From Amphiscolops sp. MND2022 (lineage: Eukaryota), in NCBI GenBank assembly GCA_964187785.1, contig OZ076409.1, positions 7,008,001 through 7,072,000 of the forward strand: 64,000 nt of DNA. The letters are read 5' to 3'. Made by a program: the position numbers and the translations under genes. The notes below the pieces were generated by a model, which saw only the letters and a list, made by a program, of their open reading frames with translations, had not been told where the DNA came from and made no database searches. This document shows positions 2,825 to 57,428 of the stretch, piece after piece (position 1 is the stretch's first letter; each line of letters begins with the position of its first letter).

Positions 2825-4016
2825 GCCACAGCTTTACATCCCCTGAAGCGACCGCGCCGAAGCGTTTCAGTGAATCGGTTAGCGGTTCGTATCTCGGGGC
2901 TTTGAGGTAGCGCTATTGCTTTCATTTTTCTGTGCCATTGCAAATTGCATCTCTTTTGTGACGTAATATACTTAGTTTTATGGCTGCTCTTCTTTTCACT
3001 TGCTTGATTTTACGACTCTTTCACTTCGTTTACTCCAGAAACTTAATGGCGCATTTTCCTTTTACAAATTTCCTTTCCTCTGAAGATTTCCTTTGTGCTA
3101 GTGATTTCAGGAAGACACTTTCTCGCTGGTTCTTTGTTATGGCGGAAAACGGCGGAATTGATTATTGTCCATGTGGAAATTTTTTGCCCAATTCTTGCGA
3201 ATTAGATATAATCAGGTTCTTCCACATTGCTACTAAATGCCTACCCAAGTTTTCTAGCTGTTATTGAAGAATGTCCCTATAGAACTTCAGAAGGGCTTCA
3301 TCGGTTATCCGGTTTCACGGGTTGTCCCATTCAGTTTTGATGAATAGCCCTTTTTGAATAGCCCGAATTACCAAAAAGTCAATTAATTTTGAAACCACGT
3401 GAATTCGAATCAGTGTATTGTACACGATCTACGATTGAACGAAAAAATATACGAGTTGCATGTTATACGAAGATGCCATTATTATACGAGTTGTACGGAG
3501 AATAGCTTTTCAGCCACTTTGCGTCGATTTTCCCATAACGCACTTGAAAAGGTTTTGGAAATATGAAATTGTGATGAATTTAAGCATCCCAAAAATGGTA
3601 ATAGGCAATATGGGATTAGAAAATGGGGCTATTACTATCCCCTTTTTGAAACAATTAACACTTTCCAATGAGAAATGATCAAAAAATGTGCTCCATGCCT
3701 TTATACGATAAAAGAGGCCAATTACACGAATATACGATATACGAAACCTTCGGTTATACGATTACACGTTATAAGAGGAACTCAGTATACGACAATACAC
3801 TGATTCGCATATCGTTTTTTTTTGGTATGATAGTCAATTTTGCCGATTGGAATTGACTCAAGATCGAGTGAATGGTGTCACACCAACAAATGCAGTAAGT
3901 TTTTATTTTCCTCATAATTCATTACACTTGCGATAAGCAAGTGCTATCAGAAAGTGCGGGCGCTTTTTTTTCCTGCGCGACAACTCTCATTTCACGCGGC
4001 AAGTCGCACAGTTCAC

Positions 4017-10556: not shown

Positions 10557-13500
10557 ATGATGGATAACTTGGGTTTCATGAACATTACCTCTGACATCAA
10601 CAATTCCATGTCGAGCAACAACTCAAATGGCGAGAACGAAATTGTTGCTGGGCCCGCGAGACCTTTTTGGTTCCTGTTCTGTAAGATCTTTCTCAACATC
10701 ATGGGCATGCTTGGAAACTCGACAGTTATTATAATCTATTCGAAGAAGAAAGATTTCAGACCCAGCGAATGTTTCATCCTGTCTATCGCTTCCGTCGATT
10801 TCTGCTTTTCCTTTCTCAGTTTGCTGCTTTGGGTCCTGGGCTTCTTCTCTGCAAACACGGAAACGATCAACAGTATGCTGATCACCTTTGTGATCTACTA
10901 TTCGCTCTATCTCATCTTCTGGGTCAGCTTCAATCGCTACATCGCAGTTATCAAACCCATCGATTACATGCAGATCTTTTCCAGCCGAACAGTTTTCACC
11001 ATCATCGCCACCGGATTCCTGTTCGGAGTCATTTTCGCGATGATACCAGTTCTCTACTACAACACTAGGTAGTGTTCAATACTGAAACTGAATTTAAAAT
11101 TGAAACTGAAACTGAAACTCTAGGTACTGAAACGATTTTGAAAAAACTGAAAGTGGAACTGAAACTGAATTGACAAAATAAATAAAACTAAAACTGAAAC
11201 TAGAACTGAAACATACGAAACAATTATTTCAGCAAGTCCTTGTTTGTTGCCAAACGGGGACCCTTTAGCCTCGTCCAGTTTTGTATGTTATGCTATAAAA
11301 GAAACAAATGTTATAGGCACGTTAAGGTGCAATTTGGCGCCTTAAAATTTTGTAGAACTTTTGGTAGAACTATTTTGGTCACTTCAGGTGTATCGAAACA
11401 AAAAGTGACGAAAAGCCATGACTATAGTCTACTCTTTTCTTAAGAAAAGCGCCGACTAAAAAACTGAAACAAAACTGAAACTGAAATAGATAGTAAAGTA
11501 ACTGAAACTGGATCATATAAAATTTAATTTCAGTATTGAACACTAACGCTAGGTCCGAACTCTATCACAAAATTTTGGACGCCGTCTACTATTCGAGCAA
11601 AGTTTTCTTCATTCTAGTCGACATAGTTTTCATGTGTGTCGTCTACAGCAACGTTGCATCTTTGGAGAGTCGCAAAGCCGCTAAGAAGAATGCTAACTAC
11701 AAGGGCGCTGTCACGGCCGGAGAACCCCAGTCTCATGCTTTTGGCGGGGTTGGCACCAATGCAGAAATCGGCAATTGTGCCTCCAAAAACGGAGTTAAAT
11801 TTGCCGGAGGTTAGTGAATTGACTCGTGTACTGAATATGGTGGATCGTGTTTTTCGTGTATTTTCAGGAGTCGGAAAAATTGTGCCTTTTCTCTCCCGAC
11901 CTTTCACTGAAAATTTCAAACTTCTCAAAAACTGTCCATACGATTTTTATGAAATTTAGCACAGTCATTCTACACCCTAGGGTGCTCCTGAGTGCGCAAT
12001 GCCATCAAAATAGTATTCCTGGAATCTGCGAAACGACGAAATGACAAAGCAGGTAATTAGTTTTTCAATAATCCGTTTCCGGCTCCTTTATCGCACATGC
12101 GGCTCTGGTCTCATATTGCATCGGTATCGTGTCCAAAAAAAATTATCATACACGGTAACGTGTATTGACTGAAATAAATCAAGTTTTTGAAAGATAAGCA
12201 ATTTCGTGGGAATCGATAGTTCGTGTAACGGTACCAGAAAATTCGTGTCAATTCACTGCCGGGGGTGTACCAGGGTCAATGAACGCTGCCGGGCAGAACT
12301 GTCTCAAGGAGCACCCAGTAGTTCTGGAAGAGTCTTCTTCCCGATTCAGTGTGACCCCCAACCCCGCTGCTGATGAAATTGATGTTCTGACCCCCTCATC
12401 CCATTCACCCACGCTGAAGTTCCCCTGGAGAAAGGGAAAAGGGAGGAATGCAAAGGAGAAACCCAGGAGTCTCTTCAAACTGTCGCGCAGGGCGACCGCA
12501 GAGGGCAACGTTGTGGGCACGAATGCGAATACCCCTGCCTCCATCCCAGCTGATCAAGTTCAAGACATGGAAATGAAGCAAAACGAGTAAGTACTTTATT
12601 CAATTTTCTGCAATGGCCTGACGCAATTGTTGCTGTATTGTGCAGTTCTTTTTCATTCCTTTGTTGCTAAATTATGCTTGAAATGCCTTTTGGGGTCCGA
12701 AGCAGAAATTAGCAGCAGCCGGTGTAATTTTTTAGGAGTCATTTCTCCCGACCTTTCTTTCAATGAAAATCTCAAATTTCTCAAAAACTCCGTTCGATTT
12801 ATATAAAATTTAGTACAGTCGTTCTACTACACCCAATGATGCTCCTGCGTGCGCAATGGCATCAAAATCATATAACTGTGATCTGAGAGACATAGCCAAA
12901 ATTGTTAGAAAATGGCAAAAAAAGGTCAATTTCTCAAAAACTGTTTTAACGATTCGAACGAAAATCTTTTTACAATCATTCTACCCCATATTAGAGTCCT
13001 ATGTTTGCAATGACATCAAAATCGTATGACTGTGATATGAGAAACATTAGTCCAATTTTTTGGACAACAGCAATTTTGGACTTTTTCGATTTTCTCAAAA
13101 ACTGTCCATACGATTCAATTTTAATTTGCTTTCTATTTTAATTCGTTTGCGACCCCCTTACCGCACATGCACCTCTGGTCTATCATGAAGTTCTTTGGAC
13201 TTGAAGTTGACGTGAATTTAGAGGCAAATATGATTCAGAGTGAAGACTCATTTTTAGTCGGCGCTTTTCTAGTGAAAAGTGCCCGACACTTACAGTGGCT
13301 AGTTTTTTTCCTTTTTTTTCGTCAGACTACAATCTCACTCTGATTGGGCCACTTTTCTTACAATCGAAACTACTAAAACTACTACCATAAGGCCAAGTCC
13401 GGTCAGCGGAAATTAGTGCAAAAGGGTCCCCCCCTTCATTTCTTACTATTTTAACGTAACCTACAAAACCGGACGAGACTAAAGGGTTTTTCGATCCCCC

Positions 13501-16500
13501 CTTTCGATTTTTTCCGGCATTGTGCGACTTTTTTTCGAAAATTTTTTAATGTCTCAAAAGAGTCCCCCTTTCGAGTTTTTTGATATTTTGCAACAGAATA
13601 TATGTTAATAAAGCCCAAAGGGTCCCCCTTTTACATTTTTCGGCACTAAGCGACATTTTCTGAACGAAAAAAAATCAAAAATTTCAAGTTTTTTTTAAAA
13701 AAGTCTTTGCGCTTTTTGAGCCTTAGATATAGCGCCGACTTTAGATGTTCCCGTCTTGTTTATCATGGAATTTTTGAAGAGAACCTGGTCTGAATTCAGT
13801 CGAAATGAATTTATCACAGAGGGAGGGATGATCAAAACACCTGTGTTCGTGCTGATTTGATTCAGAGGCGTCGTATTCCGAAGGCGGAGTGATCTAAGAA
13901 TATCTAATGGAGTGTCAATAAAAACTTCACAATTCTCTCAGCAGGTCTGAAAGTCAAGTCAAGAGATTACCCGCCAAGCCTAGGCTTTCTTTGCGTCCCA
14001 AATATTGCCCCCAAGGTGAGAAACTTTGAACTGAACAAACTTACCCATTCATTGACCTGGTAGGAATGGGCGTGATTTAGGAAATCTCCCTTTTCTTTTC
14101 AAAGTCAATGTTGAAATGTCCGTGCTGTGAAAATGAATTAAAATTATCATAATACTCACAACCGAATAAATTCCTCCTGAAAGATAAAATCCAAATTCTC
14201 TAAATTTCAATTAACCTGTTCGCGGTGCAGATTGTAATTGGCTTTGTGAGCTAGATCCATCCAATAATAAGATTTTGAGGTTCACAATTTTGGCGACTTG
14301 TAGTTTTTTTGCACTAAAACATGATTTCATTTATAATTTCATTTTCCATTCACAAATCATTCATAACAAAGTTCATCATTTTGTCAATCCGTTCTCACTT
14401 TGCGCTTGTGAAATATTGGTTACCAGACAAAAGCGTCCAAAAAAAACGGAGTCAAAAGCGCCCAAAATACGCAGTCAAAAGCGCAGTCAAATTGATATAG
14501 TTCGTTCAGAAATGCCAAATTAGCCGTTCGAGTCGCTTTCAATTGAGATTTGTTAGGTGTGAAAATATCAAGTCTGGCATTCCAAGTGAGTTAACTTTGT
14601 ATTTGAACACCTTCAATTAAGCTTCATTAGAGGCGGTGAAATCAACTCAGAAATTAGTAAGACGTTTTGCATGAAGGCGCTTTTGACTGGGGCGCTTACG
14701 ACTGTGTAAAATGGGCGCTTTTGTCTGTACACGGAAATATTACATTGTTGGCTCATTTTTATTTTCGGCAGTCATTTTTGGCCGACAGCGCTATTGGCCG
14801 ACTGTGCAATTATTGACCGGCAAAATAATTTCAGAACAGCGGAATCTTACAATGGACTTTACATTTTGAAAAGAATTAAATTAGGTTTTCATAGGATGAG
14901 GAAATTGACCTGATTTTGATTCGAAATGATCTAATTTGTTTTGTTCCCATTTAAATGAAAAATAGATGTGTTCGCAAACAATTTTTCATGCACATATAGC
15001 TTTTGATTAGATGCGAATTACAGTTACATAGCAAAATTGAGAATATTTTCGCTGATATCCAAGCATATTCAATCGGGTCAGCTAACTGCACAGTCGGCCA
15101 GTTGAGCGAGCGGTCGGCCGATTACACTGCCGCCGTCATTTTTGTCAATTTCATTTGCGACATCGCACAGAGGGATGAACTTAATAAGGTAATGAAAAGT
15201 CTAGTTAAACGGGGAAGTAATTTTGGCGGATACCATGAGAATTCGAAATGACTTGCATCCAAGCTTGAGACTCAAATCCCTTTGTGGGTTAGGACGGATT
15301 TTTTTAAACGGTCCTTCTGCAATTCTACACCGTCTAATTCCGTTGTTTGATGGTTAATTTATGTACAGTGCGCTTTTTCTGGACTAATCATGAAGCATCC
15401 TATTTCACCGTAACGTTGCTTTTTTAAAACTGATCCAATTAAAATTGAAAATACAGTACTGTAGTTAAGAAATCATTTTTTAGACAAGATTTGCTCAAAA
15501 AATTGGCTGAACTTTTTGAAAAACATCCGAATTAAAAGTTTCTCGAAATTTCATCTAGTTCACATTGGTATTTTGAAAAAAATTGAGACAAAATTTGAGA
15601 AAGGTACGAATGGCTGATTTTGAGCAAAATTGTGACTTTTTGCCGTTCTTCCAATTTTGACTGCTTTATCCACAGTTTTTTGGCAAGTTTTATGCCCAAT
15701 TAATTCCCATAAATCCACTGAATCCGTGAATGTATTCTGATTCAGTTTTAATTGGCTGAGAACGTCATATGGAGCCGATTTGTTGTTCACAGTATTTTAA
15801 GCCAGTGCTGTAAAGGCGCTTTAGCTTAATCGGGAAAGTGCTAGATTTCTAAGCGTAAGGTCAATGGTTCGAACCTCGCTATTAGCCGATCTTTGATGTA
15901 AAGGATGTTAAGGTGTTTTCTTCATGAATAAAACAATTTTAAAAAACTTTTTCAGACACTTCTTCACAGTTGTTTATGGTCTAGTTTCTGACTGTTCAAT
16001 TTGTTTGGTATTTTTTGTTCACAGACCATAACGCCTCGTGTGAAAGATGATATCTGGAAAAATTCAATAAAGTGAATGACTTTCATGCTTTATATTCCTT
16101 TGTTAAATTTTTGTACCACGAAATATTTAGCAACAAATTAAAAACCGGTGTGAAAACGACACAATTGTTTTACAAAATAGTCTTCCCAAGAGGAAAAAAC
16201 AATAAAATACAAAAAACAGTTTATTTCGTTAAAAACATGTTTAAAACGTTTCTCGTGAAAAGAAAACTGTATAATTAACAACCTTTGATTTAAGCTTGAA
16301 AAGGCGCTATTGCCTAATCGGTAGAATGCTAGATTTCTCAACGTAAGGTCAAGGGTTCGAACCTCGGTATTAGCCGATCTTTTATTTAAGCTCGAACCTG
16401 GACGAGTCGAAGTTAGACGTGCAGCAACAGCCGAAAAGCAGACAACTCAGTGTGGACATGACTGTTCTGGACTCGGAAGTTTCCCCCCGTCGCAAACCCC

Positions 16501-17343
16501 CCCGAGTAGCGCTGCTGAAGAAAGCCCTTACGGGCGTGGACCTTCACCCCGATCGTACGAACAACGGGGGAGGCTCCAATGACCGGGAAACTTCTGCCCT
16601 GAATCAAGGTTGTCAAGGTGTTTTATTCATGAATAAAACAAGAAAAAAACACGAATGAAATTTTAAAAAACACCATTTTTTCCTGTTTTTTTTCAGAGCG
16701 AAAAATTGAGATTAGACTTGAAAAAATGTCACCGCCGTTTTTGGGGAACAGAAACCATTCCTAATTTCAAGGACCCCTTTTTATAATCACTGAGACAAAA
16801 TTTCTGGTAATCGAAATATTTGGCAACAAATGAAAAACCGTTGTGCATAACACATTGTTTTCAACGGTAGTTTTCCCATGAGAAAAAAATCTAAAATACA
16901 AAGAAACAGTATATTTCGTTCAAAAACTTGTTTAAAATCTTTTTCGTGAAACAAACTGTATAATTAACAACCTTGCCCTGAACCTTGCAGCTGCGCCCAT
17001 CAACGTGACCCCGGGCGGAATGCTGAAACCGAGGACCTCGTTACGACAGAAACGAGTGACGTTCACCTTGTTTTTCGTCTGTTCCATCTTCATCGCTGTC
17101 ACCCTACCCTTCACCCTGGTCGAGATCCTCTCCTATGCACCCCCCATCTTCAATGCCAAACCCATCGTTGTCTATGAACTGAAACTGGTCACTTACTTGG
17201 TGTATTGTATCAATTTTGTAGTCAACCCCTTCATCTATTTCTTCGGAAACACTTTCTACCGCAAGGAACTCTTTGAGTTGATTAACAATTCCTTCTTCTG
17301 TGGAAAATGTAAGCTGTTACTCCCTCAAAACTCGGTTGCTTGA
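10557..17343 (+). CDS. Class A (rhodopsin-like) orphan GPCR, spliced: join(10557..11068,11553..11809,12274..12586,16391..16608,16991..17343), 550 aa
   Basis: Exon 1 has N-glycosylation-rich N-terminus, TM1 GMLGN, TM2 SIASVDF, TM3 SFNRYIAV, TM4; exon 2 has TM5; exon 5 has TM6 FIAVTLPF and TM7 NFVVNPFIY (NPxxY). GT..AG introns with compatible phases 2/1/2/1; total 1653 nt divisible by 3. Start codon and exact junctions are not confirmed by transcripts. Confidence 0.88.
11070..11545. mobile_element. hAT-like MITE forming GPCR intron 1
   Basis: 18-bp perfect TIR TAGTGTTCAATACTGAAA / TTTCAGTATTGAACACTA; 8-bp TSD acactagg (11062-69) / acgctagg (11546-53); internal (AAACTG)n repeats; nested HINE fragment ~11245-11463. 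Confidence 0.9.
11812..12258. mobile_element. hAT-like MITE forming GPCR intron 2
   Basis: TIR TAGTGAATTGACTCG / CGTGTCAATTCACTG; TSD ccggaggt (11804-11) / ccgggggt (12259-66); sibling copy at 42026-42720; nested HINE-C ~11862-12110. Confidence 0.88.
13251..13760 (+). mobile_element. HINE-A copy (GPCR intron 3)
   Basis: Same 5' and 3' termini. Confidence 0.75.
15454..15800. mobile_element. Tc1/mariner-type MITE, relative of 2092-2404
   Basis: TA|CAGTACTGT start; interior matches the reverse complement of 2092-2404; right end approximate. Confidence 0.7.
15815..15887 (+). pseudogene. tRNA-like sequence (second copy 16303-16375)
   Basis: TAGCTTAATCGG A-box-like, GGTTCGAACC B-box; stems degenerate. 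Confidence 0.6.
15900..16286. mobile_element. Sibling copy of the intron-4 MITE, inside intron 3
   Basis: Shares start aaggatgttaaggtgttttcttcatgaataaaacaa and end aaactgtataattaacaacctt with 16605-16975. Confidence 0.8.
16605..16975. mobile_element. TIR MITE (CAAGG termini, superfamily uncertain) forming GPCR intron 4
   Basis: TIR CAAGGTTGT / ACAACCTTG; TSD ccctgaat (16597-604) / ccctgaac (16976-83); sibling copy at ~15900-16286. Confidence 0.82.
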
Positions 17344-19275: not shown

Positions 19276-20439
19276 CTAATTTCTTGCTGCAAATTAATTT
19301 CATGTATGTGTATTGTACCTTGAATGTAACATTGAGCCAATCATCGGCTCGACTGTATTTCACTTTTCCACTAAAATGTTTCATAATCTCGTACTATGGA
19401 AATGTAATAGTTTCTTTACCTTACATCCAGCTAAAACTGTTTAAAGGACTTTCATACCATATATATTGTAAAATCTCGTTTTCAGATGCCAAACGTGTCA
19501 GAAATGAAATGAAAGTGATTGACATGGTTTTCGTTGTCCAGTTCACTGTTACATTTAGGTAACGTGTCAAAATTGTAAAATTGTATACTGAGACTTCAAA
19601 TCTGAAAAAAAGGCATAATCATATGAGAAAATGGTCTACCACCAGCTTGTTGAAAGGATTAATTAATTTTTTCGATGGTTTTCAAACTTCATGAAGAAGA
19701 GGGTTAAATCCAAAAAGCAATTTCGACCAATTTGTTCAAAGTATTACGCCGATTGGAAGTCCTCAAGCCACATAAATTAATTTTTCAAGAGCAGCAGATG
19801 AAGCCGGGTAAATTAACCGACAAACGGTTCATAGCGCGTTCGAAAGAAGACAATCAGGGCTTTCAATCTGATTTTTGAACTGGCTCCGAACTTTGCGCCA
19901 AAACTTTGCACGCTTCGTATCTCTGATTTCATTTCAGCATGTTTCAAAACATGCTAGGGTTACTCTGACCCAATATTGATACCAGTGTGGTAAAAAGGCC
20001 AGAAACGAAAACTGGAAAGCGGAAAATCTGCGCTCAATTTGTTTTTGATTTTTTGGTCCCATTTCCATGATTCCGGAAACATGCCAATATTCCGTGAAAA
20101 GGCATGCAATGGTATATGGCAAATATTATTCAAGAATTTTTTTCACCATACGGTCAGCTAGTGCGTTGAGAAGTTCGCCGAAATTAACTGGTACGAAATC
20201 GTACCATGGTCCATTTAGGGTTAAAGCTTCCAAAACTTTATGAATAAATTCATGACATTCGGAAAATTTAAAATAATTTGCCGAATATGAAATACCATCA
20301 AGTTTTAGTGAGTTTTGAAGCTTCTAAGAACGTATCAAGAGGCTCCCTCCTGTGAATCGATCCAAATTTTTTGTTATTAAGTTCGTCCAAAACAATTCGT
20401 CCATTTTTTTTGCATTTTTTACAATAGGTGTATCGTTTT

Positions 20440-20726
20440 TGCACATGACGAAGTCAATGTGCATTGCAGTCCAGCTAAGTAAGTTTTTTTCCACAATAGT
20501 CAACTTCATAATGAGCGCCTTTTAGAAAAAAGCCAAAACCCAGAGAGATTCGAACCTGCAGCCTCCCGATTGCACGGCATAAGTGTTGACCACTGTGCCA
20601 TAGGGACGTTATTGAACAAAGTTGAACTGTTGAATATATACGCATGCGATTAAAATAATATATATACGCATATTAAAATAATCGATGTCTTCGTCATGTG
20701 TTGCGAAGCACCGCTTCGCCTGTGTG
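20440..20726 (+). mobile_element. HINE-B with internal antisense tRNA-like module (copies ~23131-23419, ~28372-28664)
   Basis: Subterminal inverted repeat CACATGACGAAG / CTTCGTCATGTG followed by hairpin GCGAAGC-ACC-GCTTCGC. Confidence 0.68.
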
Positions 20727-21070
20727 TCAATTGAAACATTCACAGACATAGAAGCATCAAAATACTGATCTATAGCTTGAGCTATAGTTTCCGCTCGACG
20801 TTCGACATTTTGATGACATTCTGAGTAAATGACAGTTTGACATTCGTGTCCATTTTCCCAATAGTTGTCGTTTAGCAATGTTTGCAGTTGGTGTGCACAA
20901 AGTCCGCCACGGAGACAACGCGTAGGCGTGAAATGATTTTGGAAACTTACGTTGAAATACACTCCAAATAATCTTCGATAGAATTCCATTCCGAGCGATT
21001 AATCGGTTAATCGAAATACCGATCAACCTTCGAACATCCCTAATTCTCGCCAATCAAATTGCGACATGAT

Positions 21071-21470
21071 CAGGGCTGTTTGAAAAAAAACATGAGGTGT
21101 TTAAAACATTGTTTTAAACAGTTGTTTTTTAAATAAAAAATACACATTTGTATATTTCTTGGGAGCCCAGTCATTTTGCGGAAAGTTTGGCTAAGCACTT
21201 GTCCCCTGTACCGAAGACCTACTTACTCTCTGTCCGTCAAGTGCGGGATCAGAAAGAATTTTCAGTACCATGGGGTGGATCCACGATGACTTGAGGAATT
21301 GAAACTGTGGAAAAACTTACATTTTGCGCAAAAATTTGAGAAAACAATTTTTGTTGCATAAGTTTGTTTTTGAAAAAATACATTTTTGTACTTAAAACAA
21401 GTGTATTTTTTAAATGAAAAAACGTTTAAAACGTTTTTATTTTGAAAAAAGTGGTTTTTTTGCAGCCCTG
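21071..21470. mobile_element. hAT MITE (copy 23764-24164 in the tandem duplicate)
   Basis: TIR CAGGGCTG / CAGCCCTG; perfect 8-bp TSD gacatgat. Confidence 0.88.
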
Positions 21471-24400
21471 GACATGATTGCATTTCCTTGTTTTTCTGAC
21501 TGTTTGAATGTATAAAACATGAAGCAGAAGCCATGCACAAAACTACTGAAGAGACTGTTTCTCATGGAATTCAACTGCCTTTTCTTGTCAGTCATTGAAA
21601 ATTTTTGACTATCTTTCGGAGATCATTGACTATCACTTGTTACGCCGTTTCTCGATTCCGTTCGAGCAAATGTTCCGAATTGAAAAGAATCTTTAAGCCA
21701 ATTACACTGCAGATAAGTATCCCAATAAAATGATGTACTGCTTTTTTCTGTTTGCCCATCTATTCTAACTTCATAATTATCCATCTTTTTGACTTATTCA
21801 AGCTCATTTGACTTATTTTTTTTCATTGTTTTGATATGAAATCGTTATACGACATCAAGTCTGCTGCATTTATAGCCAAAAAATAAAAGGTTTGCCAATT
21901 AGTCCTAATGATATTACTTTTTGTGGATCCCTATTGTCTTCCGTTGAAAAGATTCCTTGAAGTGAGTGCAACCGTAGAGCATGAATTGCTCCCTTTGTGA
22001 AAAAATATACCTTTTTGGTATAAGATGTATTATTTCACATACAAGTATTTCACTTTTCCACTAAAATGTTTCATAATCTCGTACTATGGAAATGTAATAG
22101 TTTCTTTACCTTACATCCAGCTAAAACTGTTTAAAGGACTTTCATACCATATATATTGTAAAATCTCGTTTTCAGATGCCAAACGTGTCAGAAATGAAAT
22201 GAAAGTGATTGACATGGTTTTCGTTGTCCAGTTCACTGTTACATTTAGGTAACGTGTCAAAATTGTAAAATTGTATACTGAGACTTCAAATCTGAAAAAA
22301 AGGCATAATCATATGAGAAAATGGTCTACCACCAGCTTGTTGAAAGGATTAATTAATTTTTTCGATGGTTTTCAAACTTCATGAAGAAGAGGGTTAAATC
22401 CAAAAAGCAATTTCGACCAATTTGTTCAAAGTATTACGCCGATTGGAAGTCCTCAAGCCACATAAATTAATTTTTCAAGAGCAGCAGATGAAGCCGGGTA
22501 AATTAACCGACAAACGGTTCATAGCGCGTTCGAAAGAAGACAATCAGGGCTTTCAATCTGATTTTTGAACTGGCTCCGAACTTTGCGCCAAAACTTTGCA
22601 CGCTTCGTATCTCTGATTTCATTTCAGCATGTTTCAAAACATGCTAGGGTTACTCTGACCCAATATTGATACCAGTGGGGTAAAAAGGCCAGAAACGAAA
22701 ACTGGAAAGCGGAAAATCTGCGCTCAATTTGTTTTTGATTTTTTGGTCCCATTTCCATGATTCCGGAAACATGCCAATATTCCGTGAAAAGGCATGCAAT
22801 GGTATATGGCAAATATTATTCAAGAATTTTTTTCACAATACGGTCAGCTAGTGCGTTGAGAAGTTCGCCGAAATTAACTGGTACGAAATCGTACCATGGT
22901 CCATTTAGGGTTAAAGCTTCCAAAACTTTATGAATAAATTCATGACATTCGGAAAATTTAAAATAATTTGCCGAATATGAAATACCATCAAGTTTTAGTG
23001 AGTTTTGAAGCTTCTAAGAACGTATCAAGGGGCTCCCTCCTGTGAATCGATCCAAATTTTTTGTTATTAAGTTCGTCCAAAACAATTCGTCCAATTTTTT
23101 TTTGCATTTTTTACAATAGGTGTATCGTTTTTGCACATGACGAAGTCAATGTGCATTGCAGTCCAGCTAAGTAAGTTTTTTTCCACAATAGTCAACTTCA
23201 TAATGATCGCCTTTTAGAAAAAAGCCAAAACCCCAGAGAGATTCGAACCTGCAGCCTCCCGATTGCACGGCATAAGTGTTGACCACTGTGCCATAGGGAC
23301 GTTATTGAACAAAGTTGAACTGTTGAATATATACGCATGCGATTAAAATAATATATATACGCATATTAAAATAATCGATGTCTTCGTCATGTGTTGCGAA
23401 GCACCGCTTCGCCTGTGTGTCAATTGAAACATTCACAGACATAGAAGCATCAAAATACTGATCTATAGCTTGAGCTATAGTTTCCGCTCGACGTTCGACA
23501 TTTTGATGACATTCTGAGTAAATGACAGTTTGACATTCGTGTCCATTTTCCCAATAGTTGTCGTTTAGCAATGTTTGCAGTTGGTGTGCACAAAGTCCGC
23601 CACGGAGACAACGCGTAGGCGTGAAATGATTTTGGAAACTTACGTTGAAATACACTCCAAATAATCTTCGATAGAATTCCATTCCGAGCGATTAATCGGT
23701 TAATCGAAATACCGATCAACCTTCGAACATCCCTAATTCTCGCCAATCAAATTGCGACATGATCAGGGCTGTTTGAAAAAAAACATGAGGTGTTTAAAAC
23801 ATTGTTTTAAACAGTTGTTTTTTAAATAAAAAATACACATTTGTATATTTCTTGGGAGCCCAGTCATTTTGCGGAAAGTTTGGCTAAGCACTTGTCCCCT
23901 GTACCGAAGACCTACTTACTCTCTGTCCGTCAAGTGCGGGATCAGAAAGAATTTTCAGTACCATGGGGTGGATCCACGATGACTTGAGGAATTGAAACTG
24001 TGGAAAAACTTACATTTTGCGCAAAAATTTGAGAAAACAATTTTTGTTGCATAAGTTTGTTTTTGAAAAAATACATTTTTGTACTTAAAACAAGTGTATT
24101 TTTTAAATGAAAAAACGTTTAAAACGTTTTTATTTTGAAAAAAAGCGGTTTTTTTGCAGCCCTGGACATGATTGCATTTCCTTGTTTTTCTGACTGTTTG
24201 AATGTATAAAACATGAAGCAGAAGCCATGCACAAAACTACTGAAGAGACTGTTTCTCATGGAATTCAACTGCCTTTTCTTGTCAGTCATTGAAAATTTTT
24301 GACTATCTTTCGGAGATCATTGACTATCACTTGTTACGCCGTTTCTCGATTCCGTTCGAGCAAATGTTCCGAATTGAAGAGAATGTTTAAGCCAATTACA

Positions 24401-28281: not shown

Positions 28282-28866
28282 GGTTACATGACATTCCATC
28301 CTATGCAATTTCAACCTTCCGCAATTTCTACCAAACTCATTTTGGTTATTTAGTCCTAATACAGTGAGTTATTGCACATGACGAAGTCAATGTGCATTGC
28401 AGTCCAGCTAAGTAAGTTTTTTTCCACTATAGTCAACTTCATAATGAGCGCCTTTTAGAAAAAAGCCAAAACCCCAGAGAGATTCGAACCTGCAGCCTCC
28501 CGATTGCACGGCATAAGTGTTGTCCACTGTGCCATAGGGACGTTATTGAACAAAGTTGAACTGTTGAATATATACGCATGCGATTGAATATATACGATTT
28601 TTCGGCATCTTTAAAATAATCGATGTCTTCGTCATGTGTTGCGAAGCACCGCTTCGCCTCTGTGTTTCATTACAAAACGTATCAAGAGTGGCGTAAAATT
28701 TGAATTTAGAAATATATGTAAATTAAAACCACCTAAAATAATCATGTAACTAACTTGGATCAATTGCCAAAATAGAATTAGGTTGAAATTGCGGAAGGTT
28801 GGAAATGCAAGAGTTTCAAATTTATAAGTGCGGTTGAAATTGCATAGGATTAAATCTCCTGACACC
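28282..28866. mobile_element. Foldback-type MITE with nested HINE-B
   Basis: Inverted repeats atcctatgcaatttcaacc / ggttgaaattgcataggat; exact ends and TSD unclear. Confidence 0.55.
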
Positions 28867-40317: not shown

Positions 40318-42025
40318 GGGGCCGTGCAAGGCGAAACTATGTTGGTTTGCGACGGGAATGATGGCCCAGAGTTCAAAAGGGCAATTTTATAACTGAAAGA
40401 TGAGATAGTGCCGAATCGCTGCAAGCTGCAGAGCCTCCTTGCAGTGTCAGTAACGGCCCCCGTATATATAAATACTGAAAACCTCAACAAGTGCAGTACA
40501 GCTTTACTGAGCAAAACCAAAATTTATTAAAATGGTAAAAAAATTGACGCTCGGGATATGCACCCACTTGGGATTGTCATAATTCACGACAGCCTTCCCT
40601 TCTGCACTGTTGGCGCAATGGAAGACTCAACATGGTCTATTTGACGCGAGATTATTGTTAATAAGTCATGCTACCTTATAAATACAATTGACACCACAGG
40701 ATTTTCTCATCCTACTTGGCTGAAATAACAAATATTGCATTATTTTATTGCATTTATACACATTGCAGTTTTACTTTCAAATTTTCCCAATACAGTAATA
40801 CAAATTGCAGTTTTATTTTTTTGTCTATTGATAATTAATTTCTTCGAAAAGGGTTTTTCTGTCGAAAATAGTTTTCTGTTAGAATTTTGAAAAATACACT
40901 GAAATACATGTATTTTACAATAAAAACACTGTACGTATCATTCAACCTGTTTAATACGTATTAAATAAACAGCCCTGGTATAGTGAAAAATTTTGAATAT
41001 GATATAACAGCGTTTAGCTAGCTGTTTCTGTATATACCATTTGACCGCAAGTTCGTTGTTGCTTAATTAATCATTGGAATAAATTACTGCCATTGGCAAA
41101 TTGTAATTCGATCTTTAGTCGAAAAGCACCCTGAAGCCTTTGAATAAGTAATGAACTGGCATTACTTCTTTTTCAGAGGCTGCTAACAAAATGGTGTTTT
41201 TCTGTGAAAGTACCATCAAGTGAGGAATATCAATGCAAACGGCCTTTCAGGTCAAACAAGGCGTTTGGAATTGATTGAAAATATCGTGACACCTTGGAAA
41301 TGAACAAAGGTCTTCGCGAAGTTGGCCCAAATGGGTTTTGCTTCACTGAATCGAAGCGGTTGAAATTTCGAAATTGAATTCTGAGTACGCGGTCAGCTGA
41401 CAATTTACTCGCATCATTGACCTGTTGAAATCAGCCGATTTGCGGCCGCGCTGAATTTTTCAGCGATTTTATTAGCGATTCGACGAAGCTTGAAAAACTC
41501 GTCGAAAACAACTCTTCGAAAAGTCTCCGGCGGAAAAGTCGTCTCAGGAACAGAAAATCATCTCAGACAAATATAGTTCTAACTTGATGATCGTACTGTG
41601 CCATGAAAAATATTGAGAGGTAAACTATAAAAGTGAAAAATTTCAAGAAATTATATAAAAAGCTATATTACGCGTAAAACTGAAAATTTCACGCATCAAT
41701 TAAAAAATTAACCCATAATGCGGGTCGGCACTGCGTAGTCTCTGTGAGTAATCTGTAATTATTGTACGAGTTAAATTTCGACCAGTTTTCCTCCCTTTAA
41801 TTTCGAGGAGTTGTTTTCGACGAGTTTTCCACATACCGATTTCTGGGCCTAAAATTTAACATGAATTTATGAAGTTTCCTTTCCAAACGAGTTGATCGGT
41901 TGATAAGGTAGTTGGATGATAAAGTATATAGTGCAGCTATATGCTATTCGGATATAACGACGGCCTAGGGTATGCCGGAAAGACAGCGTTTTATCCAGAG
42001 TTGCACCGGACTTAAACGTTCCGTC

Positions 42026-42720
42026 CAGTGAATTGACGTCGGTACATGTACCGACCGGAACGCACAAATTTTCTTGTACCGTTACACGAACTACCGATTT
42101 ACCCGAGATATTGAAACAGTTTACATATACGAACAAGCCGAGAACGGCCAAAGTCGGCGCCATATCTAAGGCTCAAAATTGAAAAGGGGGACCCTTCGGG
42201 CTTTGTGAAACTCCAGCTGGTTGCAAAATATGAAAAAAATGAAGGGGGACCCTTTGGGGACTAGAAAAAATTTCCCAAAAAAGTGTAAAAACTGAGATTT
42301 TTGAACAGTGTCACATTGCCGAAAAATGTAAAAGGGGGGACTCTTTGGGATTTTTTGACATCCATTGTGTTGCAAAATATCGAAACAAATGAAGGGGGAC
42401 CCTTTGGTGCAATCCAAAAAATTTCAAAAAAAGTCGCATAGTGCCGAAAAAAAGTGGGGCTATAGGGGATCCTTAGTGTGATTTCGAAATTCTAGACGTG
42501 TTTTGTTTTTTCTTTTCGTTTTGGACGCGCTTTGGAGGTTCGAGTTGTTGAGGTTCGAAGTTGTTGAGGTTTGACGTAGTTGAACAAATGAACAAAAAAG
42601 TGGACCTTACGCGTCTAAAAAAACTACCCACTGTAAGAGTCGGGCACATTTTCTACTAAAATGCGCCGACTAAAAAGATACACGCGATACACGATTTTCA
42701 GTACCCAGGTGAATTCACCG
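42026..42720. mobile_element. Sibling copy of the intron-2 MITE (opposite orientation) with nested HINE-A
   Basis: Ends CAGTGAATTGAC / GTGAATTCACCG; TSD gttccgtc / attccgtc; internal gtaccgttacacgaacta matches the reverse complement of the intron-2 3' end. Confidence 0.82.
42132..42676 (-). mobile_element. HINE-A copy nested in the intron-2-family MITE
   Basis: Same termini. Confidence 0.75.
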
Positions 42721-45632
42721 ATTCCGTCCGACCAAATAGGACCAACTTAGCCGGATGCCAACTAGACACGCAGAGTTGGAACCAAGCACGTGATGAAATG
42801 TTGCTGGGCCTGGCGGGCTTATAGCCGGGCATTTTCGAGCTTAAATATATTCGGGCCGGGTATAACAGTTCGGAAAATAAATCGAAAATTTATACATGTT
42901 CAGTGCAGTTGCTAAAGAAATATTCTCAGCGCAAGCAACCAGAGCTCAAAGTGAACGAGATTTTATGAACGAAGTCCGCCAAAAAAACTGTCTGATGTTG
43001 AATTTTCGAATTCTGTTGTGAAAATGGATTTTTGAATTCTAATGTTTATATTTGATTGTCATTTACAATTTACGTTCGGGTATCAAATTCGTTTTCAGTC
43101 AGTTTCGTCGGGTATAAAAACGTTCAAAAATATCGGGTCGTCTTAGGATTTTAAAACGGGCTCTTGTCGGGCTTCGGGTAGAAAATTATGACCCGGTTCC
43201 AACTCCGCACGCAGACATGACAGCGTTCCTCAACTACAAGCGACGAAAAACCGCTTCTGAATTGGGCACTGAAGTATATGGTGAAAAACGAAGTAGACTT
43301 TTGCTCCAAAACGGCGAAAACTATTGTTTGATACCCGTCATAAATTCAATTAGTACCATTTTCACATCTGATACGAGATCATTGGTGTTAAATCCTTGTC
43401 CAGCCGGATTGTGTGAAAATCTAGGCCGGATGCAGGACCGGACATTTCTTCTGGAATTCGGCCGGATAGAGGAGCGGACTTCATGTCCAATACATCCCTA
43501 ATTTTGTCCGAAAGACAACCGAATGAAACCATGCATCCTTGTTAGGGCGGTCTGTAGGATTCTGACAATCAATTACTGTCAATATAAGCTTCTTGGCTTT
43601 CTGACCAGTAACGCTATGCAGGGCTCACAGAGTATCAGTAATGTCGATATAGTTTTTCCATGCTTTTTTTTAATTCTCAAAGGCATGATTTTTACGTAGC
43701 TTTTATGAAGCCTAATTTCGTACCAATCAGTTCCTCTGCAAACTTCTGAAGACACTAGCTGAACGTATGGAAAAGAAAACTTTTGAATATGGCATAGTAT
43801 TGTACACAGTTGCACGAAATATTGACTTGATGTCTATTCAATCAAGAAACCGGGACCAAAAAAATCGAAAAACTGCAGATTTTCCGTTTTTAGTCGGCGC
43901 TTCATGAAGTGAAACGCGACTATTATAGCGACTCTTTTTTTCAATCCACACGAACTGACCAAAATAGTTCTTTAAAGTTCTACAAAATATTATAGCACCA
44001 ACTTGCACCATTTGGCCTAGCGAACTGAACCAAAAAGGTTTTTCCTCTTTTTCCGCGTAACATAAAATACCGGGAGAGACTAAAGGGCCCCCCTTTCAGT
44101 TTTTTTTGGCATTTTGAGTCCCCCTTCAATTTTTTGATGTTTTGCAACAATGGATGTTAAAAAATGCGAAAGGGTCCCCCCTCTTAGCACGCCAGGGAAA
44201 TTTTCTCGTCCATTTAGGGTCAACCTATCAGATGATTCATTTTAATCGCGAATTAAGAGAAGTTTGAAGGTAATCATCGGATTATTCAAATCCGTTGAAC
44301 TTTTCAGCGAGATAAAAATTTCATTGATTGAAACCTGTCAAATAGTACGACAATGTCACAAAAAGGAAATTGCGACAATGAAACATTGACAGCCTCAATT
44401 ACAGTTATTCGCTGAATGATGAGTATGCTTTTTGCCGTCGAATGAGCTGTTTTCGAGGTCGAAAAATGCCTGGATAAAAGTTAGAGCGTTTTTAATGTTA
44501 ACAATAGCTTTTTAACCCTTGATCACGATTACTGTCGAATTTACGACTGGTTACTCTGAAATTGGCGTATAGTTTTTTTTTATATAGCTGATTGAAAACA
44601 AAGAAGAAAATCTTTTTTTGCAACTTAATGCCTGTACGAGTTATTTTTAAATAGTTTTTCAATGCTGTTTTTCAGATGCTATTACTCTGGTAATCAATCA
44701 GTTGTGCGGCGAATTTCGGCACCTGTCTCAATATTGATTAGAATTCTTTCGAGAGGAGCCGTATCATATTTTCCGCTTCACTGCGTTTTCTTTTCTGAAT
44801 GTCATTGGTGTCAAAAGATGCCATCGATTGAGTGAACAGTAGAGGTCTCCTCGTTCTCTCAATCTAAATCTTGATCGACAGATTTTGGCAGTTATGAAAG
44901 GAATCAATTTCTGCGGCGAATCCGAAGAGAATTCTTTTCTAAAGCGTCTATCAATCAAAAAGACAAAACATGTCCTATCTCCGGCTTACTTCTGGAAGCC
45001 TTTTGGAGCAATAATTGGACTGGTCAAGACCGAATAAGCAATAAATAGTGAAGTGATGACGTGGTTTTAAATGGAACATCATTTGATGATTCGACTTTTA
45101 GTTCAGGGGACATTCAGGGATTTTTCCGCGGCTATCAGCGGTGGAATCAATGAAGTAATCTATTACAGGTCTCTTTATGCTCTGCGGACATGAAGATACC
45201 ATACCCCTTTGATTCCTTTACCCCCCCCCCCTCTGCATCTACTATCGAAAACCCAGAAGCAATAAGAGCGTTGAATGATTGCGCACTAATTGACTGGGGG
45301 AAAGGAAGTAATAAATTGGACAAACATGATGTGGGTTTGCATTAATATGGACAAGGAAAGGCTTGTTGACTTGGTCACTTTTGTCATCTAGTAGGCTCTC
45401 AGGCACTGGGCTCTTCCTCTGTACACATGCCTCACATTTGTTCAGCTCCCTAATCATCTTAGAGACTGAACTAGATTTTTTAAATGTTGTTTTGTCAACG
45501 GATGCTCTCCTTGCAATGAAGGCCGTTCTCAAAGGAGGACATCGGTTAAGTCCTCCGCTATTCTCTTGCTCATCGTTGGTTTTCAGTCGGCGCATTTGAG
45601 AAGAAAATTTGCCCGACTATTAGAATGGCAAG

Positions 45633-52129: not shown

Positions 52130-53260
52130 CCCCTGTTGAATTTTTAAAAAGACGCATATCTAGTATTTTATTGACAAACCAGAGTTTCTAATACATTGTG
52201 AAATACGATTGGGCATAGAAGAATAAAGTTTTTCGATGAAAGAGTCCTTAACATTATTCCAAACAGAATAAACTGCTTCTTCGAGGGTGTCCGGGGTGAG
52301 GTGCATTGCGTTGAGTTCCCTCTTCATTTGCGCCCAGACATTTTCTATGGGGTTGAAATCTGGGCTGTATGAGGGCCAGAACTCTTTCGCAATACCATTG
52401 TCATGAAGCCACTGCTTAACTTCCCTCGATCGATGGATGGGACAGTTGTCATCCATGAAAAACTGGTCCTCGCCCAACGTGTCGATTCCGGCCGTCTTCA
52501 GCAGATCAATATAGTCTGCACTCTTGAATCTTTTTGGGGTCTTCAACAATACTCGAGACCCATTGCCACTTATGCAGCTCCAAAATATCATTGAAAATCG
52601 CGATGTTGTCTTCTCGATTGTTTTCTCTGGCTTGTACCGAGTACCAGTGGTCCTCCAGACATAGACTCGTCCATCACTCTTCAATGAAAACTTGTATTCG
52701 TCGCTTAAAACAACGCGTTTCCACTCCTCCACGGTCTTATTACGTTTCTGCTTTGCCCAGAGCAGTCGATTAACACGGGTTTCTGCTCTCATTCGAAGCA
52801 TCTTCGCAGCGGCACGGCCTACAAGGTCCATTTTGTGCAAGTTTCGTCTAATTGTCTTTGTAGATACATTTTTCATGCTGAAACTGTTGAATAGAACACG
52901 AAGTTTTTCTGCCGATGCCTTTTTGTTCTTTACAATTCTTCGCAGCCAATTTTGATATTTTTGTGTCAATTTCGGAGGTCTACCACTCCTTTTTGCGCCG
53001 TCTACACTGCCATTTTTCAGGTAGTTTTTATAGATTGTTTGAGCCGTTGATTTGTTTGAAAAACGCATCTTCTCTCGAATTTTCTCCCACGAAAGCCCCA
53101 AATCTCGAAGAATAACGACCTTAAGGCGTTCTTGAGACGTTCTTTTAACCATTTTAAACGTTATAACGTTTTAACAGTGAACGGAAGTAAGTTTTTTTTC
53201 ACGCTTCCTAGAAATTTTATACATTTAACTAGCATGCCGTAAATTTTGGTTCATGCACTG
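52130..53260 (-). mobile_element. Tc1 element retaining only one TIR
   Basis: Minus strand begins TA|CAGTGCATGAACCAAAATTTACGGCA at 53260; no matching TIR seen downstream of the stop codon; left boundary approximate. Confidence 0.75.
52160..53152 (-). CDS. Tc1-family DD34E transposase, uninterrupted 330 aa ORF
   Basis: N-terminal HTH region with GRPPKL; SDE, DDNCPIH, WPSYSPDFNPIENVW; 34 residues between second D and E. Confidence 0.95.
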   Translation of the reverse strand: MVKRTSQERLKVVILRDLGLSWEKIREKMRFSNKSTAQTIYKNYLKNGSVDGAKRSGRPPKLTQKYQNWLRRIVKNKKASAEKLRVLFNSFSMKNVSTKTIRRNLHKMDLVGRAAAKMLRMRAETRVNRLLWAKQKRNKTVEEWKRVVLSDEYKFSLKSDGRVYVWRTTGTRYKPEKTIEKTTSRFSMIFWSCISGNGSRVLLKTPKRFKSADYIDLLKTAGIDTLGEDQFFMDDNCPIHRSREVKQWLHDNGIAKEFWPSYSPDFNPIENVWAQMKRELNAMHLTPDTLEEAVYSVWNNVKDSFIEKLYSSMPNRISQCIRNSGLSIKY

Positions 53261-56088: not shown

Positions 56089-57428
56089 CAGGGCTGTCAT
56101 ATTGTTAGTTAAAAACGATATTAACATGTTAACATGTAAATTACACAAAAGTAGATGTAAATAACAGTAAAATTGTAAAAATCAAAATCTTAGTCTTTGT
56201 TCAACTGCTTGAACAAAAAGGCCATTTTTCCCGCTTTTTCAACTCCAAGAGAGCTGCGTAGCGTTCCATATGTCAAGCCTAGGGTTGAAAAGTAGCGCTC
56301 GAGTCCTGCACTTGAGGCTACGGCTGTGACAATAGAGCAGGCGATTTGAACCAACTTCGCAGAAAATCCAAATTTTATGCCACCTTTCCACCAGGCATCT
56401 GGTGAGACATTTTTGGAGATTGCCATGGAAACGATGGTCGAGCAGATTGGCAGCAAAAGTTAATAACAAGTTGTTAATAACACTATGTAAATAACATGAC
56501 AGCCCTGCTTCTTTCTGCTGCAAAATATCTTTTGAAAGCAAATTTGCCATATGGGCATGACAACCATATGTGTGGATTTCTGAAAATCGGTTCCTCATTG
56601 ACGCCATATTGGCTGCATTGTCAGTAACTACACTGCAAATTTTAACTGAAAATTCCGATTCTACAAAGGCTAACTGCTCACGGACTATACGCTCTAAATA
56701 ATCTGCTGTATGCGATTCGCCAGTTGTAACCATGGTAGTAACTAAATAGGGCACCCCTTGGCAAATAAAACATACTCCAAGGACGGGCTCATTTGTGAGG
56801 GTGGACCACCCATCGATGGCAAGCGTAGCATTCATGCCCCTGACTTTTACCTTGACTTTCTCTTTTTCTTGCTCGTAAACTTCGTCTAAAAGTTCACCCG
56901 CTAGTCTTCGGCGATCAGGGATAACAGCTCCGGGCTTCATTTTCTGCACAAAATCTTTAAAATTTTTGTTCGCGGCGGCATTGAAAGGTGTATTGGTGGC
57001 GACAAAATAGCGCACTAGAGAAAGATCCATTTCATGTTGTTTGGATTTTGATATGCAAATGTCCATAGTAGTCTGCTTCAAGACCTTAGAGGGCCCAGGT
57101 CCGTCTACTTGCTGAACATCTTCATCGTCAGGTTTTGCTGCGCATTTCTTCAGATGAGCTTCCAGTCTAACAGGATTATTCACAATTTCCGTATTGCAAG
57201 CCTTGCATTTCCCTTTTTTAACACCATTAACAGTAACAGAAAGAAATTTATCCCACACCGGCTTTTTCGCTGGAGGCATTTCAGTGATCTGAAAAAATAC
57301 AATAACACCGAATGATGAAAATCCAAAAAAAACTGTTAAAATCGGATGTTAATTTCAAAACATTCATGTAAATAACATGTAAATTAAAGGCTTGTTAATA
57401 ACACTATGTAAATAACATGACAGCCCTG
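56089..57428 (-). mobile_element. hAT transposon (internally deleted) inserted in Gypsy pol
   Basis: 12-bp TIR CAGGGCTGTCAT; perfect 8-bp TSD ctagcaca (56081-88 / 57429-36). Confidence 0.96.
56190..57279 (-). pseudogene. Truncated hAT transposase (BED finger, catalytic N-half, C-terminal dimerisation remnant)
   Basis: WDKF..CKAC..HLKKC; AIDGWS, VVTDNAANM, GCHAH; then in another frame WWK..ASSAGLERYFS..RSSL; middle missing. Confidence 0.9.

Follow-up and report, generated by a model that had tools for sequence, protein, structure and literature searches.

How might a spliceosome remove a transposon insertion when the copied target sequence offers a donor but no acceptor? The predicted second intron of a receptor gene raises this question. 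It lies in the window, by which we mean the whole 64,000-nucleotide stretch of DNA analyzed here and to which all positions refer. The intron holds an element with inverted ends (TIRs) and a target duplication (TSD) on either side, and the downstream TSD has no AG.

The receptor gene and its predicted introns

The gene around intron 2 encodes a rhodopsin-type GPCR (7tm_1, Pfam PF00001, E = 1e-13) and has one copy in the 1.07 Gb assembly. Relatives with names, from the acoels Convolutriloba macropyga and Symsagittifera roscoffensis, match exon 1 at 60% and 57%, and there are two nearer ones, P0001 (92% in exon 1) and P0002 (80%). By these matches the host is probably an acoel too. No relative was found among JGI metagenome contigs, and the matches to the GPCR exons include no transcript-derived protein of the same species that spans the intron-2 junction. 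Our model of the gene, on the forward strand, has five exons: 10557-11068 (from the ATG to TM4), 11553-11809 (TM5 and the start of the third intracellular loop; 86% to P0001), 12274-12586 (third intracellular loop), 16391-16608, and 16991-17343 (TM6-7 and the stop codon). Together they encode 550 amino acids without an internal stop, in end-to-end alignment with P0001. A candidate exon near 13944-14018 was rejected, because joining 12586 directly to 16391 keeps the phase and agrees with P0001.

Three of the four predicted introns (1, 2 and 4) are MITEs, from three families. Intron 1 (11069-11552) is predicted to be scarless: a MITE of the second family at 11070-11545, with TIR TAGTGTTCAATACTGA, lies between the TSDs ACACTAGG (11062-11069) and ACGCTAGG (11546-11553), and the joined exons give a gapless alignment to P0001 (YYNTRSELYHK). 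Intron 4 (16609-16990; acceptor model p = 0.996) contains a MITE of the third family at 16605-16975, with a TIR of the CAAGGTTGTTAA type and TSDs CCCTGAAT (16597-16604) and CCCTGAAC (16976-16983). Its donor is within the TIR, so that the final 4 nt of exon 4 (CAAG) come from the element, and its acceptor lies 15 nt downstream of the element's end, for a net change of -3 nt. Intron 3 (12587-16390) is canonical, has neither TIR nor TSD, and is at a position common to P0002; an apparent further copy of the intron-4 family lies inside it (15898-16290), with a copy of a short repeat on either side. Three MITE introns out of four is unusual, because only 1 of 238 dynein introns has a TIR and TSD. 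The same figure rules out a mass invasion of introns by MITEs.

The intron-2 element is 447 bp long (11812-12258) and is flanked by 8-bp TSDs that are identical at 7 of 8 positions, CCGGAGGT at 11804-11811, which is the source of the donor AG/GT, and CCGGGGGT at 12259-12266. Its TIRs (11812-11823 and 12247-12258) match at 11 of 12 positions, the left one reading TAGTGAATTGAC and the right end CAGTGAATTGAC; the first base of the left TIR is T, a variant of the C seen in the family. Three pieces derive from the family (11813-11865, 12109-12192 and 12204-12258), and a 27-nt deletion before the right TIR is private to this copy (1 of 69). The stretch 11866-12108 comes from a different repeat that is nested here and is very abundant (1998 candidates), and contains a cryptic acceptor (11867) and a cryptic donor (12053) on either side of a stop-containing stretch. 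The combination of TIR and TSD at both intron ends exceeds chance: among 475 shuffled donor/acceptor pairs, none passed a strict form of the test and 3 passed a loose form.

Predicted splice sites of intron 2

Splice sites were judged against 274 junctions from nine dynein heavy-chain genes of the host genome, derived by protein alignment. A filter (at least 2 references and a margin of at least 6) passed 212 of them and left 210 acceptors, which comprise 136 CAG, 64 TAG, 9 AAG and 1 GAG. A conditional-logit acceptor model based on these 210 introns picked the right site in 186 of 210 when each gene was held out in turn.

A previous, sequence-only reading of this locus had proposed that the donor at 11810-11811 is assembled from the TSD and the TIR into a near-consensus site. 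This holds up well: the predicted donor GTTAGT (11810-11815), in the context AG/GTTAGT, reaches 10.6 bits, which places it in the top quarter of dynein GT donors, and GTTAGT itself occurs in 10 of 210 donors. A second candidate, GTGAAT within the TIR, was rejected at -0.4 bits. The same reading found no AG in the second TSD, as the sequence at 12259-12266 confirms, and took the CAG at 12271-12273, in the former exon, as the likely acceptor. That CAG is 15 nt past the element and is the first AG after 12237. The acceptor model also ranks it best (p = 0.71, with 0.21 for an out-of-frame AAG at 12308 and 0.03 for 12237), at a score of 6.0 that is low for a true site (approximately the 11th percentile). 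The model is unreliable for element-derived introns, because in intron 1 it chooses wrongly, giving 0.84 to an out-of-frame TTTCAG and 0.075 to the sole in-frame site. Joining 11809 to 12274 stays in frame and removes 9 nt relative to the empty site (GVPG to G), in agreement with the three dropped codons proposed earlier. Comparison with a relative, which had been suggested as a check, indicates that these codons were once exon, since the empty site would read FAGGVPGSM, against FVGGAGTM in P0001. We put the probability at roughly three in four that the MITE is spliced from 11810 to the CAG at 12271-12273, with three codons lost.

Inside the element there are three further in-frame AGs, at 12198 (AAG), 12219 (TAG) and 12237 (CAG). 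The first two were rejected on model scores of -2.1 and 0.8. The third, which had been overlooked, would as the main acceptor (12235-12237) make 21 nt of the element end plus TSD2 exonic and add nine codons relative to the empty site. The product is open and in frame (563 amino acids), the private 27-nt deletion keeps this frame (1 in 3 by chance), and the base change in TSD2 would be synonymous. A CAG of this type is present in 34 of 69 copies of the family, and is absent from all three scarless copies described below, where it would be out of frame. We nevertheless consider its use improbable, as its score of 2.8 is below the 1st percentile of true acceptors, the sequence upstream is purine-rich, and the +1 base is A. 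It is more improbable still that the insertion is not productively spliced (a dead or dying allele), or that the TSD2 G reflects a polymorphism or a mistake in the assembly: introns 1 and 2 do have weak acceptors and a stop-containing cryptic exon (11868-12052) could form, but productive splicing is argued for by 1653 nt of exon without a stop or frameshift next to an element that has drifted to 81-93% of its own consensus, and by the identity to P0001 of TM6-7, which is 3' of all three MITE introns, in a single-copy gene.

The intron-2 family and the history of the insertion

The suggestion that the family was mobile is well supported. A left-end pattern allowing up to 2 mismatches gave 178 matches, so the family has at least 178 copies; the same pattern written backward gave none. 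We examined 105 distinct left ends, made up of 100 listed places among the 178 matches together with loci from further searches, and found a right TIR and TSD at 69 of them; the other 36 were dropped. The TSDs of the 69 complete copies comprise 39 that are perfect, 22 with one mismatch and 8 with two; one copy with a TSD of 5/8 (L100) was excluded. The consensus, built from 35 copies, is 521 bp long, with a median identity of 93%. The copies are short, numerous and dispersed, with TIRs, a TSD and no coding capacity seen, as expected of MITEs. MITEs of the hAT superfamily have an 8-bp TSD and a short TIR starting with YAG. The intron-2 family has 8-bp TSDs of variable sequence and a TIR, CAGTGAATTGAC, with the YAG start, so it may be hAT-type by these two features. 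No autonomous partner and no transposase linked to these ends was found among 17 open-ended copies that were followed for about 10 kb, with ORFs judged by eye.

A sibling of the intron-2 element lies in the window on the opposite strand, at 42026-42720. The earlier reading had pointed out its own 8-bp TSD, which is GTTCCGTC and ATTCCGTC (42018-42025 and 42721-42728; 7/8), and had proposed aligning it with 11812-12258. That alignment is significant at the ends only, with matches of 34/37 (E = 2e-11), 29/37 (E = 7e-5) and 12/12. The sibling's TIRs match at 10 of 12 positions, its interior has been replaced by other repeats, and the nested repeats in both elements are other abundant repeats. It matches the family consensus over 82 nt at 93% and 37 nt at 84%, and we take both elements to be damaged members of one 521-bp family. 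Elsewhere in the window there are a truncated hAT-like element (56089-57428; DUF659, E = 2e-10) with a perfect 12-bp TIR and an 8-bp TSD, in the pol of a Gypsy-like retrotransposon; a 392-bp element (3411-3802) with a TIR starting CAGTG and a TSD of 7/8; a 336-aa ORF (52160-53170, reverse strand) that is Tc1/mariner transposase-like by eye; and a near-identical duplication (19355-24399 and 28368-28588) with a period of about 2.69 kb, plus a further partial copy.

The family is mostly non-exonic, with 4 of 69 complete copies in long ORFs. AGGT is present in the sense TSD of 4 of 69 complete copies, and these four rank highest as ORF interrupters, each with 79 codons or more on both sides: the intron-2 copy, L062, L099 and L109, which are in unlike, non-paralogous ORFs. 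L062, L099 and L109 are predicted scarless introns with AG/GT in the TSD and a CAG or TAG acceptor. A search for the AGGT pattern, through which alone L099 came to light, gave 15 matches, of which 7 are complete; four of these are in long ORFs and three (L097, L106 and L108) are not. When the intron-2 copy is left out, 3 of 6 AGGT copies interrupt ORFs compared to 0 of 64 (P = 4e-4), or compared to 3 of 64 at a looser cut (P = 0.007). Three copies without AGGT (L127, L039 and L162), with 68-75 codons on each side, were not confirmed as exonic, and L162 has no Pfam hit. The ORF interrupted by L062, which is located downstream of an APC5 exon, is continuous in the relative P0015. Because AGGT-TSD copies interrupt ORFs and the L062 site is continuous in P0015, we infer that its members make introns facultatively and would borrow both splice sites.

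The P0002 ORF, on a 14-kb contig, continues without a break past the sites of introns 1 and 2 and terminates at intron 3, and the window's exon-3 frame likewise ends where intron 3 begins. We read P0002 as the genomic ORF of a relative without introns 1 and 2. With its site empty in this relative at the protein level, intron 2 appears to be a gained intron.

Two histories had been put forward for its acceptor: a scarless intron that lost its AG and slid, or recruitment of a cryptic AG at insertion. We favor the second, and a third history, in which TSD1 gained an A, had been missed. Recruitment of the CAG at insertion, with later loss of a GAG from TSD2, has in our estimate about an even chance of being correct, judging by the rarity of GAG, codon use, mutation bias and donor scores. 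It is favored over a scarless start because GAG makes up only 1 of 210 acceptors and, even with the AG restored in TSD2, scores below 12273 in the acceptor model (0.12 against 0.29). In the model, loss of the GAG raises the score of the CAG from 4.4 to 6.0.

In the third history the target sequence was CCGGGGGT. TSD2 would then have been free of AG throughout, 12273 would have served as acceptor ever since the element arrived, and the donor would have become stronger afterward through a synonymous G-to-A substitution in TSD1. This is possible but somewhat unlikely. Changes of the type G>A/C>T are 1.8 times as frequent in the family as A>G/T>C (0.044 versus 0.025), and GG/GTTAGT would still score 7.75 bits, equal to the median donor; however, GGG is the rarer glycine codon (61, against 179 for GGA), and all other exonic copies found have AG/GT. 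A scarless start at a GAG in TSD2 (12264), with a 9-nt slide after an A to G change, seems unlikely. The other three exonic copies are scarless via AG/GT in the TSD and GGA is the commoner codon, but those three use CAG or TAG, and the GAG figures above count against it. The scarless form aligns best with P0001 (2183 versus 2176), which shows only the former exon status of the codons.

In our preferred account, the intron-2 MITE, a non-autonomous element with inverted ends of 12 bp and target copies of 8 bp, lies in coding sequence for the third intracellular loop, a variable part of the GPCR. It seems to have no usable splice site of its own, and the ordinary spliceosome would remove it, starting at the AG/GT of the upstream TSD and ending with the host CAG (12271-12273), at the cost of three codons. 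Most copies lie outside exons, and exonic ones would persist where the target sequence happens to supply sites; here the target would have supplied a good donor, at best a weak GAG, and an in-frame CAG 9 nt downstream. The CAG was probably in use from insertion, and the subsequent loss of the GAG would have sharpened it. The flexible loop may tolerate the loss of three codons; intron 1, in a conserved part, is predicted to be scarless.

Other MITE families and comparison with known introners

The end pattern of the intron-1 family has 9 matches, and one of them besides intron 1 itself, L224, would form a scarless intron in an ORF that resembles GCN1. Roughly 6 kb separates L224 from the L062 intron, which is in the neighboring APC5-like gene. 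A 459-nt predicted GC-AG intron in a dynein gene (L183-L188, G000:C11), with a TIR of 11/12 and a TSD of 7/8, would represent a fourth MITE-intron family.

The intron-4 family has at least 159 copies, and its TIR holds the donor CAAG/GT in either orientation. We examined 84 left ends, of which 47 belong to complete copies. ORFs of at least 50 codons on each side are interrupted by 15 of the 47 complete copies and by 9 of the 31 pattern-only copies, including the one in the GPCR gene, compared to 3 of 348 random sites (cut 55 codons). In 12 of the 15 interrupting copies the first downstream YAG is in frame (P = 3e-4 against an expectation of one third; control 22 of 53, Fisher P = 0.017), and in 6 of the 15 the acceptor is 12 nt past the element, giving no length change. 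On our reading of the exceptions, L274 fits a scarless GC-AG intron and L269 an in-frame AAG, and L327 is unexplained. The hosts include ACLY (L260) and SF3B3 (L264). Many of the copies L252-L351 are clustered at 5.8-9.9 Mb of C1 and near contig ends, and two copies (L293 and L253) are on either side of one short exon. From these predictions the intron-4 family appears to be the stronger introner of the two. Its first-YAG rule is the same as the one we propose for intron 2, and provides the best indirect support for it. Dozens of introns elsewhere in the genome are likely to come from similar elements.

Clear transposon-made introns are rare in animals, with two groups in PMC9860276 (Gozashti et al. 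2022) and the sea urchin in PMC12130899, as far as the sections used here go. In one gene of this genome there are three MITE introns, each of a different family and each solving the splice-site problem in its own way. With the non-exonic copies of each family as a control, one can test directly which insertions persist in exons and how borrowed acceptors are refined. Our broadest interpretation, which may well be right but could equally be wrong, is that MITEs of several families are still giving rise to new introns in this genome. An hAT-type MITE would turn into an intron at any site where the first AG of the host on the downstream side is in frame, often putting its CAAG in place of four host bases; the core genes ACLY, SF3B3, GCN1 and APC5 would be examples. 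Introners with shifted acceptors would be missed by the filter of PMC9860276 and could amount to a common but hidden way in which animals gain introns, and TSD mismatches would record the maturing of splice sites.

Maize Ds elements are spliced via host cryptic acceptors, in cases that are mutant alleles, whereas the MITE introns here look fixed in conserved genes. Our literature search found nothing on intron gain in acoels or on splice-site sliding in introners, so introner-type gain in the acoel lineage would be without an earlier report that we could find. The word 'acoel' does not appear in PMC9860276, nor 'acoel' or 'Symsagittifera' in the main text of PMC12130899. The class of mechanism is known, since introners described in PMC9860276 take sites from the TSD or exon and add or drop codons. 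According to that paper, introners are non-autonomous TIR elements with TSDs that generate spliceosomal introns; some families, as in Florenciella, take both sites from the TSD or adjacent exon, with cases of codon gain or loss; and they are more frequent in aquatic organisms and known in two animal groups only. PMC12130899 attributes approximately 82% of classified introners to TIR DNA transposons, mostly non-autonomous, notes that several families may act in one genome, and adds the sea urchin among animals; the portion used of a review of MITE-derived introns (PMC11282704) includes tunicates. The elements described here are likewise non-autonomous TIR DNA transposons with TSDs, of several families per genome, and take sites from the TSD or exon; the intron-2 family differs in being mostly non-exonic (4 of 69 copies in long ORFs).

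PMC9860276 defines an introner, in the sections used, by at least 4 introns with similar ends in non-paralogous genes, and the intron-2 copy, L062, L099 and L109 provide four predicted ones. Empty sites in relatives are found at the protein level in P0002 (introns 1 and 2) and P0015 (L062). The same paper's boundary filter requires the similarity to come within 5 exonic or 10 intronic bases of both intron boundaries. The three scarless copies lie inside it and the intron-2 acceptor, 15 nt past the element, lies outside. Introns with acceptors 12-15 nt past the element are in this blind spot, and would likely be filtered out. Aureococcus introners, as given there, have an 8-bp TSD and keep 4 bp of the element in the exon, as does the intron-4 family with its CAAG/GT. 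In Aureococcus the element brings both splice sites and adds 12 bp, whereas the intron-4 family takes a host acceptor, often 12 nt past the element and then without a change in length (6 of 15).
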